NCBI GenBank assembly: GCA_965214485.1
Contig: CBDCBW010000010.1
Span: forward strand, 130,594-194,593
Length of the DNA stretch: 64,000 bases
From: Rhodothermales bacterium
GTDB taxonomy: Bacteria; Bacteroidota; Rhodothermia; Rhodothermales; JANQRZ01
Reading direction: 5' to 3'
The translations under genes and the position numbers were made by a program. The notes under the pieces are model-generated. The model saw only the letters and a program-made list of their open reading frames with translations, was not told the origin of the DNA and made no database searches. Of this stretch, positions 41,680 through 63,663 are shown piece after piece (within the stretch, counting starts at the first letter, position 1; each line of letters starts with the position of its first letter).

Positions 41680-43476
41680 ATGTGCGGGATTGCAGCAGCG
41701 TTTGCCTACGGCGGCTCGGGCGTGGACCCGGCCTGGCTCGGGCGAGCGTGCGACGCGATGGCCGCGCGCGGGCCGGACGGTTCGGGCCTCTGGATGACCC
41801 CGGACAGCCGCGCTGGGCTGGGACACCGCCGCCTCTCGATCATTGATCTGTCCGAGGCCGGCGCACAGCCGATGGCCTCCGGTGCCCACGTCCTCTGCTT
41901 CAACGGCGAGATCTACAACTACCGGGCGCTGCGCGATAACTTGGAGCGCCGAGGGCACCGCTTCGCCTCGCACTCGGACACCGAGGTGCTGCTTCGCCTC
42001 TGGGCCGAGCACGGCGAGGGCATGGTCGAGCACCTCCGGGGGATGTTCGCCTTCGCGCTCTGGGACGCCGAGCGCGGCGGGCTCTTCCTCGCCCGCGACC
42101 CCTACGGCGTCAAGCCGCTCTACCTCGCCGACGACGGCGCAACGTTCCGCGCGGCCTCTCAGGTGAAAGCCCTGCTCGCGGGCGGCGGCATCGACACGTC
42201 GCCGGAGCCGGCGGGCCACGTCGGGTTCTTTTTGTGGGGGCACGTGCCGGAGCCCTACACCTTGTATAAAGGTATCCGCGCGCTGCCCGCCGGGCATACG
42301 CTGTGGATCGACGGCTCGGGCGAGCGCCGCGAGCGCGCGTTCACGACCGTCGACGCCGTGCTGGCCGAGGCCACGCCGGAGCACGTCAACGGAGAGGCCC
42401 GGCACCGGCTCCGCGAGGCGCTGCTCGACAGCGTGCGGCACCACCTCGTGGCGGACGTGGACGTGGGCGTCTTCCTTTCGTCGGGCCGGGACTCGGCGAC
42501 GCTCGCGGCGCTCGCCGCCGAGGTCGGAGGGCGGCTCCGCACCGTCACGCTCGGCTTCGCCGAGTACCGGGGGAGCGAGCACGACGAAGTCCCCCTCGCC
42601 GAGCGCGTGGCGGCGCACTACGGGGCCGAGCACAACACCGTCTGGATCGGCCAGAGCGATTTCCGCGACGCCTTCGAGCGTTTCCTCGCCGCGATGGACC
42701 AGCCGACGACGGACGGCCTCAACAGCTATTTCGTCAGCCGGGCGGCGGCGCAGGCCGGCCTCAAGGTGGCCCTCTCCGGGCTGGGCGGCGACGAGCTCTT
42801 CGGCGGCTACCCGAGCTTTACCGAAATCCCCCGGCTCGTGGCTCTCACCCGGCGCATCCCTCTCGCGGCGCGGATCGGGCCGGGCGTGCGGGCGGTGTCG
42901 GCCCCCGTGCTGCGGCGCTTCACGTCGCCCAAGTACGCCGGGCTGCTCGAATACGGCACCGACTACGCCGGGGCGTACCTCCTGCGCCGGGGGATGTTCA
43001 TGCCGTGGGAGCTGCCCGAGGTTCTCGACCCGGACCTCGTGCGCGAGGGCTGGCGCGCGCTCGATACCCGCGCCCGGCTCAAGGCCACGGTCGCCGATAT
43101 CCGCGCGAGCCGGTTAAAAATCTCGGCGCTGGAGTCGATGTGGTATATGCGGAACCAGCTTCTTCGAGACACCGATTGGGCGAGCATGGCGCATTCGCTC
43201 GAAGTCCGGGTTCCGCTCGTCGATGTCGCGCTGCTGCGCGCCGTCGCCCCGCTCCTCGTTGCCCGGCCCGACCTCGGCAAGCACAGTCTCGCCGAGACGC
43301 CGGCCCGCCCGCTCCCCGACGCCATCTTGCACCGTCCCAAAACCGGTTTCACCACGCCCGTCCGCCAGTGGATGCTGGAGGACGGCACGGTCGCGCCGAG
43401 CGACCGCGGGCTGCGCGGTTGGGCGCGGCAGGTCTACGCGCGCACCTGGGACGCCGCCGCCGGGCCGGTCGCATGA
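41680..43476 (+). CDS. Asparagine synthase (glutamine-hydrolysing)-family amidotransferase
   Basis: 598 aa. The N-terminal MCGIAA provides the Cys2 nucleophile. It has GLGHRRLSIIDL and the PP-loop FLSSGRDSA. In glycan clusters this family commonly amidates uronic acids. Confidence 0.8.
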   Translation: MCGIAAAFAYGGSGVDPAWLGRACDAMAARGPDGSGLWMTPDSRAGLGHRRLSIIDLSEAGAQPMASGAHVLCFNGEIYNYRALRDNLERRGHRFASHSDTEVLLRLWAEHGEGMVEHLRGMFAFALWDAERGGLFLARDPYGVKPLYLADDGATFRAASQVKALLAGGGIDTSPEPAGHVGFFLWGHVPEPYTLYKGIRALPAGHTLWIDGSGERRERAFTTVDAVLAEATPEHVNGEARHRLREALLDSVRHHLVADVDVGVFLSSGRDSATLAALAAEVGGRLRTVTLGFAEYRGSEHDEVPLAERVAAHYGAEHNTVWIGQSDFRDAFERFLAAMDQPTTDGLNSYFVSRAAAQAGLKVALSGLGGDELFGGYPSFTEIPRLVALTRRIPLAARIGPGVRAVSAPVLRRFTSPKYAGLLEYGTDYAGAYLLRRGMFMPWELPEVLDPDLVREGWRALDTRARLKATVADIRASRLKISALESMWYMRNQLLRDTDWASMAHSLEVRVPLVDVALLRAVAPLLVARPDLGKHSLAETPARPLPDAILHRPKTGFTTPVRQWMLEDGTVAPSDRGLRGWARQVYARTWDAAAGPVA

Positions 43477-44609
43477 GAATCCTCGCGCTCATCACCGACG
43501 GCTTCGGCACCTCGGGCGGCATCGGCAAGTTCAACCGGGACTTGATGGAAGCGCTGTGCACGCACCCCGACGTGCGCGAGGTCGTGGCGCTGCCCCGGCT
43601 GATGGCCGACGGCACCGAGGCCCCGGCCAGCGGCCCGTTCGAGAAGCTGACCTACCTCACCGACGGCGTCAACGACAAGGCTCGCTACGTGCTCACGCTC
43701 GGGCGGCACCTCCTGCGCGATGCGGACTACGACCTCGTCCTCTGCGCCCACATCAACCTTTCGCCGCTCGGGTGGCTGTGCCGCCTGCGGACCGGGGCGA
43801 CGCTCGTCCAGGTCGTCCACGGCTCCGAGGCGTGGCACCCGACGGGCCGCGCGATCATCGACCGAGCCGTCCGCAGCATGGACGGTTTCATCACCGTGAG
43901 CGGGGTCACGAAGGGGCGCTTCTCACGCTGGACCGGCCTCGCCCCGGAGACGGGCTTCGTCCTCCCCAACTCCATCGACGCCGAGCGCTTCACGCCGGGG
44001 CCGAAGAGCCCCGCGCTGCTCAGCCGCTACGGGCTGCACGGCAAAACCGTCCTCCTGACGCTGGGTCGCCTCGACGCGGGGGAGCGGGCGAAGGGCTTCG
44101 ACGAGGTGATGGAGGTCCTCGGCGCGCTGGCCGAGGACACGCCCGACCTCGCGTACCTCATCGTCGGCGACGGCTCGGACCGGGCGCGGCTCGAAGCAAA
44201 AGCAGAGCGCCTCGGGCTGGGTGAGCGTGTGGTCTTCGCGGGGTTCATCCCGGAGGACGAAAAAGTCGACCACTACCGGCTGGCCGACGCCTACGTGATG
44301 CCGAGCAAGTGGGAAGGCTTCGGGATCGTGTACCTCGAGGCGATGGCGTGCGGCCTCCCGGTCGTCGGCAGCAGCATCGACGGGAGCCTGGAGGCCATCC
44401 CCGACGAGAGCTTCGGCCTCACCGTGGACCCGGCCAAGCCCGAGGAGCTCAAAGGCGCGGTGCGCGCGTCGCTCGCCCGAGGCCACGGCGTGCCGGAGCG
44501 CCTGAACCACTTCTCGTACGAGAACTTTTCACGCCGAGTGCACGGGATCATCGATGCCTTCGCCGGTACTACGTCGGAATCTGTAGACCGACCGAAGGAA
44601 GCCGCCTAA
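43473..44609 (+). CDS. Glycosyltransferase, GT4-like (GT-B fold)
   Basis: The ATG at 43473 overlaps the upstream stop (ATGA). MRILALITDGFGTSGGIGKFNRD is followed by the C-terminal E-x7-E region YVMPSKWEGFGIVYLEAMACGLPVV. Confidence 0.8.
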   Translation: MRILALITDGFGTSGGIGKFNRDLMEALCTHPDVREVVALPRLMADGTEAPASGPFEKLTYLTDGVNDKARYVLTLGRHLLRDADYDLVLCAHINLSPLGWLCRLRTGATLVQVVHGSEAWHPTGRAIIDRAVRSMDGFITVSGVTKGRFSRWTGLAPETGFVLPNSIDAERFTPGPKSPALLSRYGLHGKTVLLTLGRLDAGERAKGFDEVMEVLGALAEDTPDLAYLIVGDGSDRARLEAKAERLGLGERVVFAGFIPEDEKVDHYRLADAYVMPSKWEGFGIVYLEAMACGLPVVGSSIDGSLEAIPDESFGLTVDPAKPEELKGAVRASLARGHGVPERLNHFSYENFSRRVHGIIDAFAGTTSESVDRPKEAA

Positions 44610-44666
44610 GCGCGTGCACGGGAGACACGCGCCTACCCCCTTTTGAATTCCGCAAGCCGAAACCAG

Positions 44667-62479: not shown

Positions 62480-62481
62480 CG

Positions 62482-63663
62482 ATGACCTCGCTGCGCCTCG
62501 GCGTCCTCGCCACCCACCCGATCCAGTACCACGCGCCGCTCTACCGAGCGCTGGCCGACCGGCTCGACCTCCGGGTCTACTTCGCGCACCAGCAGACCGC
62601 GAAGGGGCAGGCCGCCGCCGGCTTCGGCGTGGCCTTCGAGTGGGACGTTCCGCTCCTCGACGGCTACTCGCACCAGTTCCTCACGAACGAGGCCGCTCAG
62701 CCCAGCACCGAAGGGTTCCAGGGGTGCAGCACCCCCGAGATCGCCGAGATCATTGAGCGCGAGCGTTTCGACGCGTTCCTCGTCACCGGTTGGTATAACC
62801 GCAGCTACTGGCAGGCGATACGCGCGTGCTGGCGGACCGGCACGCCCCTCTTGGTCCGTGGCGACTCCCAGCTCTCGACGCCGCGGCGGTGGTGGGTCCG
62901 GGCGGCCAAAGAGGGGTTCTACCGGTGGTTCATCCCGCGCTTCGACGCCTACCTCGTCGTCGGCGAGCGGGCGCGGGAGTACTACCTCCACTACGGGGCC
63001 GACGCCGGGCGCATGTTCTTCGTGCCGCACTTCGTAGACAATGCGTGGTTCCGCACGCGGGCCCAGGCTGTGCGCGCACGGGGGTCAGGCCTGCGCTCCG
63101 AGTTCGGCATCCACGAGAATGCCCTCATCCTGCTCTTCGCCGGGAAGTTCATTCCGAAGAAACGCCCCGGCGACGTAATCGCTGCCGCTGTCCGCCTTCA
63201 CGAACAGGGCTATGCCGTGGAGGTCGTTTTTGTGGGTTCGGGCGAGTTGGAGGCGTCGCTTCGAGAGGCCGCGACGCAGGCATCGGTGCCTGTCCACTTC
63301 GCCGGGTTCAAGAACCAGTCGGAGCTTCCCGACTACTACGTCGGAGCCGACCTGCTCGTGCTGCCGTCGGACGGTGGTGAGACGTGGGGCCTCGTTGTCA
63401 ACGAAGCCATGGCGTGCGGGACCCCGGCAGTCGTCTCTGACACCGTCGGCTGCGCGCCGGATCTCATCGATTTTGGTCAGACGGGATTTACGTTTTCTCT
63501 CGGGGACGTGAAGGACCTCGCTGAAGCGCTGGAACGAATGTTGCCGCTGCTTGGGTCTGCACAAGTCCGCCGAGCACTCGCCGAGAAAATGGAGACGTAC
63601 TCCGTCGAGACTGCTGCCGAGGGCGTGTTGCGCGCCGTCGAGGGCGTGCAAGTTGGGCACTAG
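62482..63663 (+). CDS. Glycosyltransferase family 4 (GT-B)
   Basis: 393 aa with LLFAGKFIPKKRP and an EX7E-type region LLVLPSDGGETWGLVVNEAMACGTPAVV. Confidence 0.75.
   Translation: MTSLRLGVLATHPIQYHAPLYRALADRLDLRVYFAHQQTAKGQAAAGFGVAFEWDVPLLDGYSHQFLTNEAAQPSTEGFQGCSTPEIAEIIERERFDAFLVTGWYNRSYWQAIRACWRTGTPLLVRGDSQLSTPRRWWVRAAKEGFYRWFIPRFDAYLVVGERAREYYLHYGADAGRMFFVPHFVDNAWFRTRAQAVRARGSGLRSEFGIHENALILLFAGKFIPKKRPGDVIAAAVRLHEQGYAVEVVFVGSGELEASLREAATQASVPVHFAGFKNQSELPDYYVGADLLVLPSDGGETWGLVVNEAMACGTPAVVSDTVGCAPDLIDFGQTGFTFSLGDVKDLAEALERMLPLLGSAQVRRALAEKMETYSVETAAEGVLRAVEGVQVGH

Follow-up and report, generated by a model that had tools for sequence, protein, structure and literature searches.

A Rhodothermales gene block combining five sulfotransferases with Wzm/Wzt export, predicted to produce a multiply sulfated surface polysaccharide

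Introduction

Recent papers describe sulfated polysaccharides as essentially confined, among bacteria, to cyanobacteria (PMC8205485, PMC13390465), with chemically proven exceptions in marine Gammaproteobacteria (PMC11766843). The synechan cluster xss of Synechocystis contains two sulfotransferases and a Wzx/Wzy system, and the paper describing it also mentions ABC-type clusters of cyanobacteria that include sulfotransferases (PMC8205485). Cobetia marina KMM 1449 has a chemically proven sulfated capsule, a Kps ABC system and, within the same cluster, the genes for 3'-phosphoadenosine 5'-phosphosulfate (PAPS) (PMC11766843). In Actinoplanes missouriensis, the wps-1 cluster encodes two sulfotransferases, one of them of heparan-sulfate type, and both are needed for the phenotype (PMC13390465). 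Here we describe a 19-gene block at positions 41680–63663 of a 64-kb stretch of contig CBDCBW010000010.1 (the whole stretch is called the window hereafter), which probably assembles a multiply sulfated surface polysaccharide by means of ABC-transporter-dependent export.

Wzm/Wzt O-polysaccharide pathways with a carbohydrate-binding Wzt are exemplified by Escherichia coli O9a and Klebsiella O12, and by the Wzm-Wzt structures of Aquifex aeolicus. We know of no characterised pathway of this type whose product is sulfated. The Salmonella T1 antigen is another example of an ABC-transporter-dependent O-polysaccharide (PMC11294581). Our literature search found no paper linking Rhodothermales with sulfotransferases, and a review of polysaccharide sulfotransferases (PMC11625862) holds nothing on bacterial enzymes.

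Gene organization and related loci

A GC3 frame plot showed unbroken plus-strand coding from 41680 to 63663, in which 19 genes (g1 to g19) were placed with a coding fraction of 97%; this bears out the initial annotation, which had proposed a single co-directional block of about 22 kb. Genes g1 to g10 encode, in order, an AsnB-type amidotransferase, a GT4 glycosyltransferase, Wzm, the sulfotransferase ST-A, Wzt, the sulfotransferases ST-B and ST-C, a GT2 glycosyltransferase, a GT4 and the sulfotransferase ST-D. They are followed, from g11 to g19, by a GT2, the sulfotransferase ST-E, a GT2, a double GT2, a fusion of a phosphoribosyltransferase with a HAD-type phosphatase (PRTase-HAD), a GT2, a GT4, a GT4-like protein and a GT4. 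The AsnB-type protein, Wzm/Wzt and the PRTase-HAD fusion had all been named in the initial annotation and were recovered by Pfam and by the HAD motifs. The G+C content of the block is 0.711, against 0.691 for positions 1–40200 and about 70% for the whole window.

We assign the window to an uncultured marine bacterium of the Rhodothermales: its IspH protein is 84% identical to the best-scoring taxon-named match, a protein from a Rhodothermales metagenome-assembled genome (MAG), and 74% identical to that of Rhodocaloribacter, and four of its proteins have sorting domains for type IX secretion (see below). The same locus was found in three other assemblies, L001 (GCA_039178415.1), L002 (a 3.5-Mb ENA contig) and L024 (GCA_028284265.1), with orthologues sharing 51–87% amino acid (aa) identity. 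Its flanks are stable, with AsnB, GT4, Wzm, ST-A, Wzt and ST-B at the 5' side and g15 to g19 at the 3' side. The central region, covered by two of the three relatives (L001 and L002), varies in its content of ST-D-like and GT2 genes, and the locus contains seven sulfotransferases in L001 and five in L002. By analogy, such a variable centre may be likened to serotype-determining regions.

Sulfotransferases

The five sulfotransferases of the block fall into three subfamilies (ST-A/C, ST-B and ST-D/E). They start where the initial annotation had placed them, and the motifs it quoted are present in all five translations. When these calls were submitted to profile searches, a check set beforehand, the Pfam cut-offs (27 bits for Sulfotransfer_3, 22 bits for Sulfotransfer_2) were passed by four of the five, the exception being ST-E, which carries the same motifs as ST-D. 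The 5'-phosphosulfate-binding (5'-PSB) loops read PRTGTSW in ST-A, PRSGTTW in both ST-B and ST-C, and PKCGGTS in ST-D and ST-E. Moreover, the 3'-phosphate-binding (3'-PB) motif, RHP......S or RDPV.RW.S, is intact in all five, and in alignments of the ST-A/C and ST-D/E families the PAPS-motif positions do not vary.

ST-A (g4, 304 aa, 45630..46544, on the plus strand like every gene of the block; Sulfotransfer_3 44.9 bits) is encoded between wzm and wzt and carries the motifs GMPRTGTSW and LLRHPCGQFAS. Its orthologue in L002 is 77% identical and occupies the same position, that in L001 likewise lies upstream of wzt, and its conservation is about at the same level as that of the transporter. ST-C (g7, 320 aa, 48891..49853; Sulfotransfer_3 48.8 bits, Sulfotransfer_1 24.6 bits) is a paralogue of ST-A, with 39.8% identity over 274 aa. 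An ST-C orthologue is present in L001 and was not found in L002, where a Sulfotransfer_2 gene comes after the ST-B orthologue. ST-B itself (g6, 311 aa, 47926..48861; Sulfotransfer_3 138.3 bits, Sulfotransfer_1 63.8 bits) matches, among solved structures in the PDB, the CurM sulfotransferase (1.3e-12) and tyrosylprotein sulfotransferases.

ST-D (g10, 273 aa, 52055..52876; Sulfotransfer_2 23.8 bits) was classified as a carbohydrate O-sulfotransferase of the heparan sulfate type. A profile of the ST-D/E family built from 33 relatives matches heparan sulfate 6-O- (E 1.4e-10) and 2-O-sulfotransferases (6e-9). The fold comparison, made for ST-D among the sulfotransferases, gave the same answer: with an AlphaFold2 (AF2) model of predicted local distance difference test (pLDDT) score 92.2, the top seven Foldseek matches are all heparan sulfate 2-O- and 6-O-sulfotransferases at E ~1e-6 (4ndz, 3f5f, 5t05). 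Profile (ST-D/E) and predicted fold (ST-D) thus agree with the initial annotation, which had assigned the two proteins with the HIPKCGGTS motif to the carbohydrate sulfotransferase type. Invariant residues of the family are K36, S41, H98, R119 and S127, the histidine aligning within the GH motif of heparan sulfate 2-O-sulfotransferase. An exhaustive search returned 1501 representative proteins at E<=0.001 and 180 at E<=1e-30, so the ST-D family is established but not large.

ST-E (g12, 271 aa, 53869..54684) is a paralogue of ST-D with 57.3% identity; it has HIPKCGGTS and RDPVKRW as in ST-D, and the C-terminal 33 aa of the two are identical. Each is followed by a GT2 gene, g11 (327 aa, 52879..53862; Glyco_tranf_2_3 43.2 bits) after ST-D and g13 (307 aa, 54687..55610; Glyco_tranf_2_3 59.1 bits) after ST-E, and these partners are 72.6% identical. 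The two sulfotransferase-plus-GT2 units form a diverged tandem duplication, the DNA being mostly 50–70% identical and less so at the 3' ends. As each sulfotransferase is paired with a GT2, every such pair would attach one sugar, which it would then sulfate. Within the duplication lies a 477-bp exact direct repeat (plus strand, copies at 52774..53250 and 54582..55058), which covers the 3' end of the sulfotransferase gene together with the beginning of the GT2 gene behind it. The repeat is either the trace of a recent gene conversion or an artefact of the assembly. If it is a gene-conversion tract, it could drive the gain or loss of a sulfotransferase-plus-GT2 unit.

The duplications bear on another explanation, namely that the glycan is real but lightly sulfated, several sulfotransferases being redundant, condition-specific or inactive and the ST-D/ST-E pair being a by-product of duplication. 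The existence of two paralogue pairs (ST-A/ST-C and ST-D/ST-E), the recent exchange between sulfotransferase-plus-GT2 units to which the exact repeat would point, the scores of ST-E below the Pfam cut-offs and the varying sulfotransferase content of orthologous loci would all fit with it. Yet the five proteins are of full length with intact PAPS-binding motifs, the relatives retain five to seven copies, and the paralogues are far diverged outside the repeat, which suggests that they were retained for long under selection. We consider light sulfation unlikely and favour multiple sulfation of the glycan. By a crude hydropathy scan, no membrane-like segment was seen in any sulfotransferase or glycosyltransferase of the block; sulfation should therefore occur in the cytoplasm, before export.

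Export, chain initiation and chain fate

Wzm (g3, 310 aa, 44667..45599) is an ABC-2 permease (ABC2_membrane 41 bits, cut-off 26.9) with four membrane-like segments in the same crude scan. The NCBIfam models for Wzm/RfbD and for KpsM both matched it weakly and under cut-off, KpsM with 35.4 bits against 300, and Pfam detected no KpsE, KpsD, KpsS or KpsC domain in the window. Wzt (g5, 440 aa, 46578..47900) joins an ABC ATPase (ABC_tran 78.3 bits) to a C-terminal carbohydrate-binding domain (Wzt_C 50.4 bits, cut-off 30.4). Its best PDB matches are 8dku and 7k2t (E 1.7e-63), 404-residue chains named "ABC transporter" in a search output that gives no organism, which we take to be full-length Wzt of Aquifex aeolicus, the O-antigen exporter subunit. 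The alignment spans query residues 60–377, beyond the ATPase domain; the C-terminal 174 aa taken alone have no PDB relative by sequence.

Five kb upstream of the block, on the minus strand, lies a gene for a polyprenyl-phosphate sugar-phosphate transferase of the WecA/MraY family (35478..36758; Glycos_transf_4 140.5 bits; NCBIfam ECA_wecA 139 bits, under the cut-off of 326). It is a candidate chain initiator, tied to the block by proximity only. On the other side, the window end cuts the locus short inside the gene that follows g19 (63840..64000, plus strand, start approximate). The translation ...GLIIGFVGAAVVGLLSSNPLLTAACLLTVPVFFK of the final 160 nt of the window aligns with the N-terminus of the protein encoded at 7637–9133 of L024, and the cut gene is an orthologue of this 498-aa polytopic membrane protein. 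In L024 (7637–12626) the membrane protein is followed by a GT4, a sulfotransferase (Sulfotransfer_1, 48.7 bits) and a carbamoyltransferase.

The product could also be a capsule, a free exopolysaccharide (EPS) or a glycan partly polymerised outside the cytoplasm, rather than an O-antigen-like chain of lipopolysaccharide (LPS). In favour of this, the 498-aa protein matches a repeat-unit polymerase model, TIGR04370, at E 7e-4, a Wzz/tyrosine-kinase protein of the polysaccharide co-polymerase (PCP) type is encoded at 37768–40158 (Pfam/NCBIfam), and a WaaL-type ligase was not identified. However, the polymerase match is weak and sub-threshold (18.7 bits, cut-off 40), the kinase gene is on the strand opposite to the block with a type IX secretion system (T9SS) cargo gene standing between them, no Wzx flippase was matched by Pfam among the 19 genes, and the C-terminal domain of Wzt is typical of O-polysaccharide exporters. 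We regard a product of this kind as a substantial possibility, though clearly the less expected one beside an O-antigen-like chain. Among the 19 genes, Pfam detected none of the methyltransferase, kinase or Kdo-transferase domains of known terminators; as neither a terminator nor a ligase was recognised, the gene content is compatible with LPS, capsule or another destination.

The lack of a recognised terminator or ligase also gives room for a more speculative idea. Perhaps the sulfate transferred by ST-A to the non-reducing end of the finished chain acts as a cap, ending elongation and serving as an export signal that the C-terminal domain of Wzt recognises. We rate this as improbable, given that the wzm-sulfotransferase-wzt order is conserved only in this lineage and sporadic elsewhere. 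If it is true, such a cap would represent a type of chain terminator that is chemically new to ABC-dependent glycan pathways. It could also explain a puzzle in the ABC-type O-antigen cluster of Aeromonas salmonicida, where an unexplained sulfotransferase-domain gene stands directly after wzt while the published O-antigen is without sulfate (PMC4483657).

The phosphoribosyltransferase-HAD fusion

The g15 protein (337 aa, 57614..58627; Pribosyltran 27 bits, cut-off 26.3) has an N-terminal type I phosphoribosyltransferase domain (residues 16–146) and a C-terminal HAD-type phosphatase domain (about 157–290). In the AF2 model (pLDDT 90.2), the N-terminal half adopts the canonical type I purine-PRTase fold, with purine PRTases matched by Foldseek at 1e-7. 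A profile of 42 homologues matches a PRTase at 1.8e-7 and, weakly, the HAD domain of Pnkp1 (3e-4). GxPRSG and DD91-92 are invariant in these homologues, and HAD motifs I–IV are largely kept (D160 in 37/42, D162 in 40/42, T202 in 39/42, K247 and E262 in 42/42).

Known ribofuranosyltransferases that depend on 5-phosphoribosyl 1-diphosphate (PRPP) consist of a PRPP-using transferase and a HAD phosphatase, the latter taking off the 5-phosphate (PMC11294581, PMC11127046, PMC10299916). Like the gPRT-PRP proteins (Thermobacillus composti 7shg, Salmonella STM0726; PMC11294581, PMC11127046) and Bcs3 CriT/CrpP (PMC10299916), g15 joins a PRPP-transferase module to a HAD module, with both sets of catalytic motifs intact, and is encoded among the glycosyltransferases of an ABC-dependent glycan locus. 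In the prototype, however, the order is N-terminal PRP and C-terminal gPRT (PMC11294581), whereas in g15 it is reversed, and the transferase half has the type I purine-PRTase fold with the DD motif. The 42-homologue profile did not match 7shg when run against all PDB sequences with E up to 10, and 7shg was absent from the Foldseek top 50 of g15, which held purine PRTases and one ppGpp-binding hypothetical protein. Assignment of g15 to the gPRT-PRP class was rejected on these grounds: only type I purine PRTases were matched, 7shg was absent and the domain order is reversed.

Unlike the gPRT-PRP group, the g15 family is not confined to glycan loci. Most of its 1182 matches bear the annotation orotate or hypoxanthine phosphoribosyltransferase. 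Among the three other lineages that were checked, one had a homologue in an EPS locus and two had it in unrelated contexts, so a constant association with glycan loci was rejected. Homologues also occur singly, away from glycan loci, in a cyanobacterium (L025, 7001–7978) and in an actinomycete (L027, 7001–7993). By analogy with the known enzymes, the addition of ribose from PRPP would be the most likely role of g15 here, a tentative assignment to which we give somewhat less than even weight. That g15 founds a class of PRPP-dependent ribofuranosyltransferase with reversed architecture, built on a type I PRTase, is possible and, if anything, a little more doubtful.

AsnB, glycosyltransferases and regulation

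The AsnB-type glutamine amidotransferase (g1, 598 aa, 41680..43476; Pfam Asn_synthase 203.9 bits, GATase_7 150.2 bits) passes the NCBIfam model asn_synth_AEB (383.8 bits, cut-off 267.1). It is 87% identical to its L002 orthologue and holds one internal membrane-like stretch in the crude hydropathy scan, Wzm being the only other protein of the block with such segments. The possibility that it is a lasso cyclase was rejected, as it scored 150 bits against a cut-off of 525 while passing the asparagine synthase model.

The block contains ten glycosyltransferase genes with 11 domains, five genes being GT4 and five GT2; the estimate of about 11 genes in the initial annotation thus applies to domains rather than genes, whereas the double-domain enzyme it described is real. 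This enzyme (g14, 638 aa, 55674..57590) has two Glycos_transf_2 stretches (228.2 bits) whose halves are 58% identical to each other; it corresponds to two separate genes in L001, and in L002 only the C-terminal half has an orthologue. The other GT2 proteins, besides g11 and g13, are g8 (356 aa, 49867..50937; Glycos_transf_2 138.7 bits) and g16 (321 aa, 58644..59609; Glycos_transf_2 120.7 bits). The GT4 proteins are g2 (378 aa, 43473..44609; Glycos_transf_1 120.5 bits; 77% identical to L002), whose gene is overlapped by g1 by 4 nt, g9 (359 aa, 50976..52055; Glycos_transf_1 47.1 bits), g17 (415 aa, 59615..60862; Glyco_trans_1_4 38 bits; 70–73% identical to orthologues in L001, L002 and L024), the GT4-like g18 (434 aa, 61175..62479; Glyco_trans_4_4 36.6 bits; 72–84% identical to orthologues) and g19 (393 aa, 62482..63663; Glycos_transf_1 105.3 bits). 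Pfam found no sugar-nucleotide synthesis genes in the 19-gene block, which fits with the use of housekeeping donors, PRPP included.

The junctions between genes measure -4, 57, 30, 33, 25, 29, 13 and 38 nt from g1 to g9, and -1, 2, 6, 2, 63, 23, 16, 5, 312 and 2 nt from g9 to g19. The overlaps and gaps under 15 nt reported in the initial annotation therefore describe part of the block well, 8 of the 18 junctions being of 15 nt or less, while one gap reaches 312 nt. This sole long non-coding gap (60863–61174, before g18) has equivalents of 67–206 nt in the relatives. It holds no terminator-like and no sigma-70-type promoter-like site, in a scan that does not cover Bacteroidota-type promoters. 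Over the block, terminator-like sites were fewer than chance would give and no sigma-70-type promoter was found, both scans being uninformative for a Bacteroidota-type organism. Ahead of the block, 91 nt 5' of g1, the sequence TAGTTTTG (41582..41589, plus strand) matches the Bacteroidota-type -7 box TAnnTTTG and is the sole such match there; five matches occur in the 64-kb window against 1.55 expected. We regard it as a putative promoter element. The block is operon-like and most likely represents the main part of an operon.

Distribution and neighbouring genes

Loci found via ST-D relatives carry sulfotransferases beside Wzm/Wzt in marine filamentous cyanobacteria, in a Desulfosarcinaceae MAG and in a Chloroflexota MAG. 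For relatives of ST-A, Wzm or Wzt was adjacent in 5 of 80 metagenome loci, and among the 17 loci that exceed 8 kb, this adjacency was missing from 15. The wzm-sulfotransferase-wzt order, present in the distant locus L102 (1–10328), recurs in L028, L029, L100 and L105 as well; as a general rule for ST-A relatives it was rejected in view of the 15 loci. ST-A-like sulfotransferases stand repeatedly beside AsnB-type amidotransferase and GT4 genes (L102, L089, L092, L079, L045, L088), and this clustering suggests a recurring AsnB/sulfotransferase/GT4 module in distant loci. These results qualify the earlier opinion that such a density of sulfotransferases coupled to an ABC-transporter pathway is unusual. 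Five or more sulfotransferases are indeed uncommon, xss and wps-1 having two each, but the same locus exists in three related genomes, and the coupling to ABC export recurs in the three groups named above, which are of unrelated phyla, and is published for Cobetia (PMC11766843). Since the design recurs both in nature and in published work, the claim of rarity has to be tempered.

Elsewhere in the window, a lasso-peptide-like cluster occupies 25104–34950 on the minus strand. It comprises an 819-aa AsnB-like protein (32491–34950) that scores 759.8 bits with the NCBIfam model for lasso cyclases (cut-off 525), an ABC exporter (29115–31025), an NTP_transf_5 protein (25104–26294), an Exo_endo_phos protein (26462–27598) and two open reading frames (ORFs) without family match; a precursor peptide and a leader peptidase were not located in it.

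It might be supposed that the sulfotransferases modify some lipid or small molecule, or else what the lasso cluster makes, and are merely co-located with glycan genes. The presence of this cyclase, the polyketide (CurM) and protein tyrosine sulfotransferases that are the closest solved relatives of ST-B, and the position of most distant ST-A relatives away from Wzm/Wzt could be cited for it. We find it very improbable: the sulfotransferase genes are interleaved with glycosyltransferase and transporter genes, an interleaving conserved in L001 and L002, ST-D and ST-E resemble polymer-level glycosaminoglycan sulfotransferases in profile and fold, and the lasso cluster is on the opposite strand and more than 6 kb distant. 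A glycan remains our preferred substrate.

Four window proteins carry T9SS C-terminal sorting domains (1885–5295, 9038–10684, 10761–12857 and 40647–41444), the gene of the last being the immediate upstream neighbour of the glycan block. T9SS cargo of other Bacteroidota is anchored to an anionic LPS. Further upstream, two LuxR-type response regulators (22951–23670 and 24247–25029) are 94.8% identical over 231 aa; they adjoin a PAS histidine kinase (19723–22773) and look like a recent tandem duplication.

Discussion

From the gene content, motifs, folds and synteny observed, we infer sulfation itself, every substrate and the order of the steps as follows. A polyprenyl-phosphate-linked primer would be made at the inner membrane face, probably by the WecA-like enzyme encoded 5 kb upstream, and the ten soluble GT2/GT4 enzymes would lengthen the chain. 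While the chain is still in the cytoplasm, the five soluble PAPS-dependent sulfotransferases would furnish it with sulfate esters, the PRTase-HAD protein may transfer ribose from PRPP and take off its 5-phosphate, and AsnB may amidate a carboxyl group. The finished polyanion would then be exported by Wzm/Wzt, its binding being performed by the C-terminal domain of Wzt.

Several points weigh against this proposal. Sulfation of the glycan is a prediction from genes. As the initial annotation had said of PAPS synthesis, neither cysD, cysN, cysC, cysQ or a sulfate permease nor any ATP-sulfurylase, APS-kinase or CysQ domain was found by Pfam among the ~45 predicted proteins of the whole 64-kb window. 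ST-D exceeds its Pfam cut-off by only 1.8 bits (23.8 against 22), ST-E stays under every Pfam cut-off (19.4–20.1 bits), and sequence searches of the PDB gave no relative for ST-A or ST-C. To these are added the lack of a recognised chain terminator or WaaL-type O-antigen ligase and the mixed contexts of the g15 homologues.

If the proposal holds, this conserved Rhodothermales locus, with its five to seven sulfotransferases, would add a further phylum to those with sulfated surface glycans, and the O-polysaccharide-type Wzm/Wzt pathway to the routes by which such glycans are made. Moreover, ST-D and ST-E, as small soluble relatives of heparan sulfate 2-O/6-O-sulfotransferases that each stand beside a likely partner glycosyltransferase, represent a type of enzyme attractive for making glycosaminoglycan-like polymers in bacteria. 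The locus also raises the questions of how an ABC exporter with a binding domain handles a polysulfated chain, and whether a type I PRTase-HAD fusion adds ribose to glycans.

In comparison with known systems, the block resembles the Wzm/Wzt O-polysaccharide pathway in having Wzm, a Wzt with Wzt_C, soluble glycosyltransferases, no flippase in the block and a WecA-family enzyme nearby. It differs by its five sulfotransferases, of which ST-A is encoded between wzm and wzt, and by the lack of a recognised terminator or ligase. ST-D and ST-E share PAPS-binding motifs, the aligned histidine and the fold with the animal heparan sulfate 2-O/6-O-sulfotransferases (4ndz, 3f5f, 5t03), yet they are only 15–17% identical to them and are soluble, predicted cytoplasmic proteins of about 270 aa with no Golgi membrane anchor.

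Among sulfotransferase-bearing clusters, as far as the available parts of their descriptions go, xss similarly combines many glycosyltransferases with sulfotransferases of different subfamilies (PMC8205485). It has two sulfotransferases, a Wzx/Wzy/PCP system with the PCP inside the cluster and the XssQRS regulators, whereas the block has five or more, uses Wzm/Wzt, gives no Pfam match to Wzx or Wzy in its 19 genes, has its PCP/tyrosine kinase outside the block on the other strand and belongs to Rhodothermales, not to a cyanobacterium. The Cobetia cluster (PMC11766843) is likewise non-cyanobacterial, with ABC-type export and sulfotransferase genes, but it encodes capsule-type KpsMTED/KpsSC and includes cysDNC-cysQ, whereas the block has Wzm and a Wzt that carries a binding domain, and the 64-kb window contains no PAPS genes. 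Similarly, wps-1 (PMC13390465) is a non-cyanobacterial polysaccharide cluster whose product, as here, is predicted to be sulfated; unlike the block, it is Wzx/Wzy-dependent, has two sulfotransferases and belongs to an actinomycete. Related clusters are thus already known, and the block stands among them as a richly equipped variant, not as a system of a new kind; what is new is the number and diversity of its sulfotransferases, the O-polysaccharide-type exporter and the phylum of the host.

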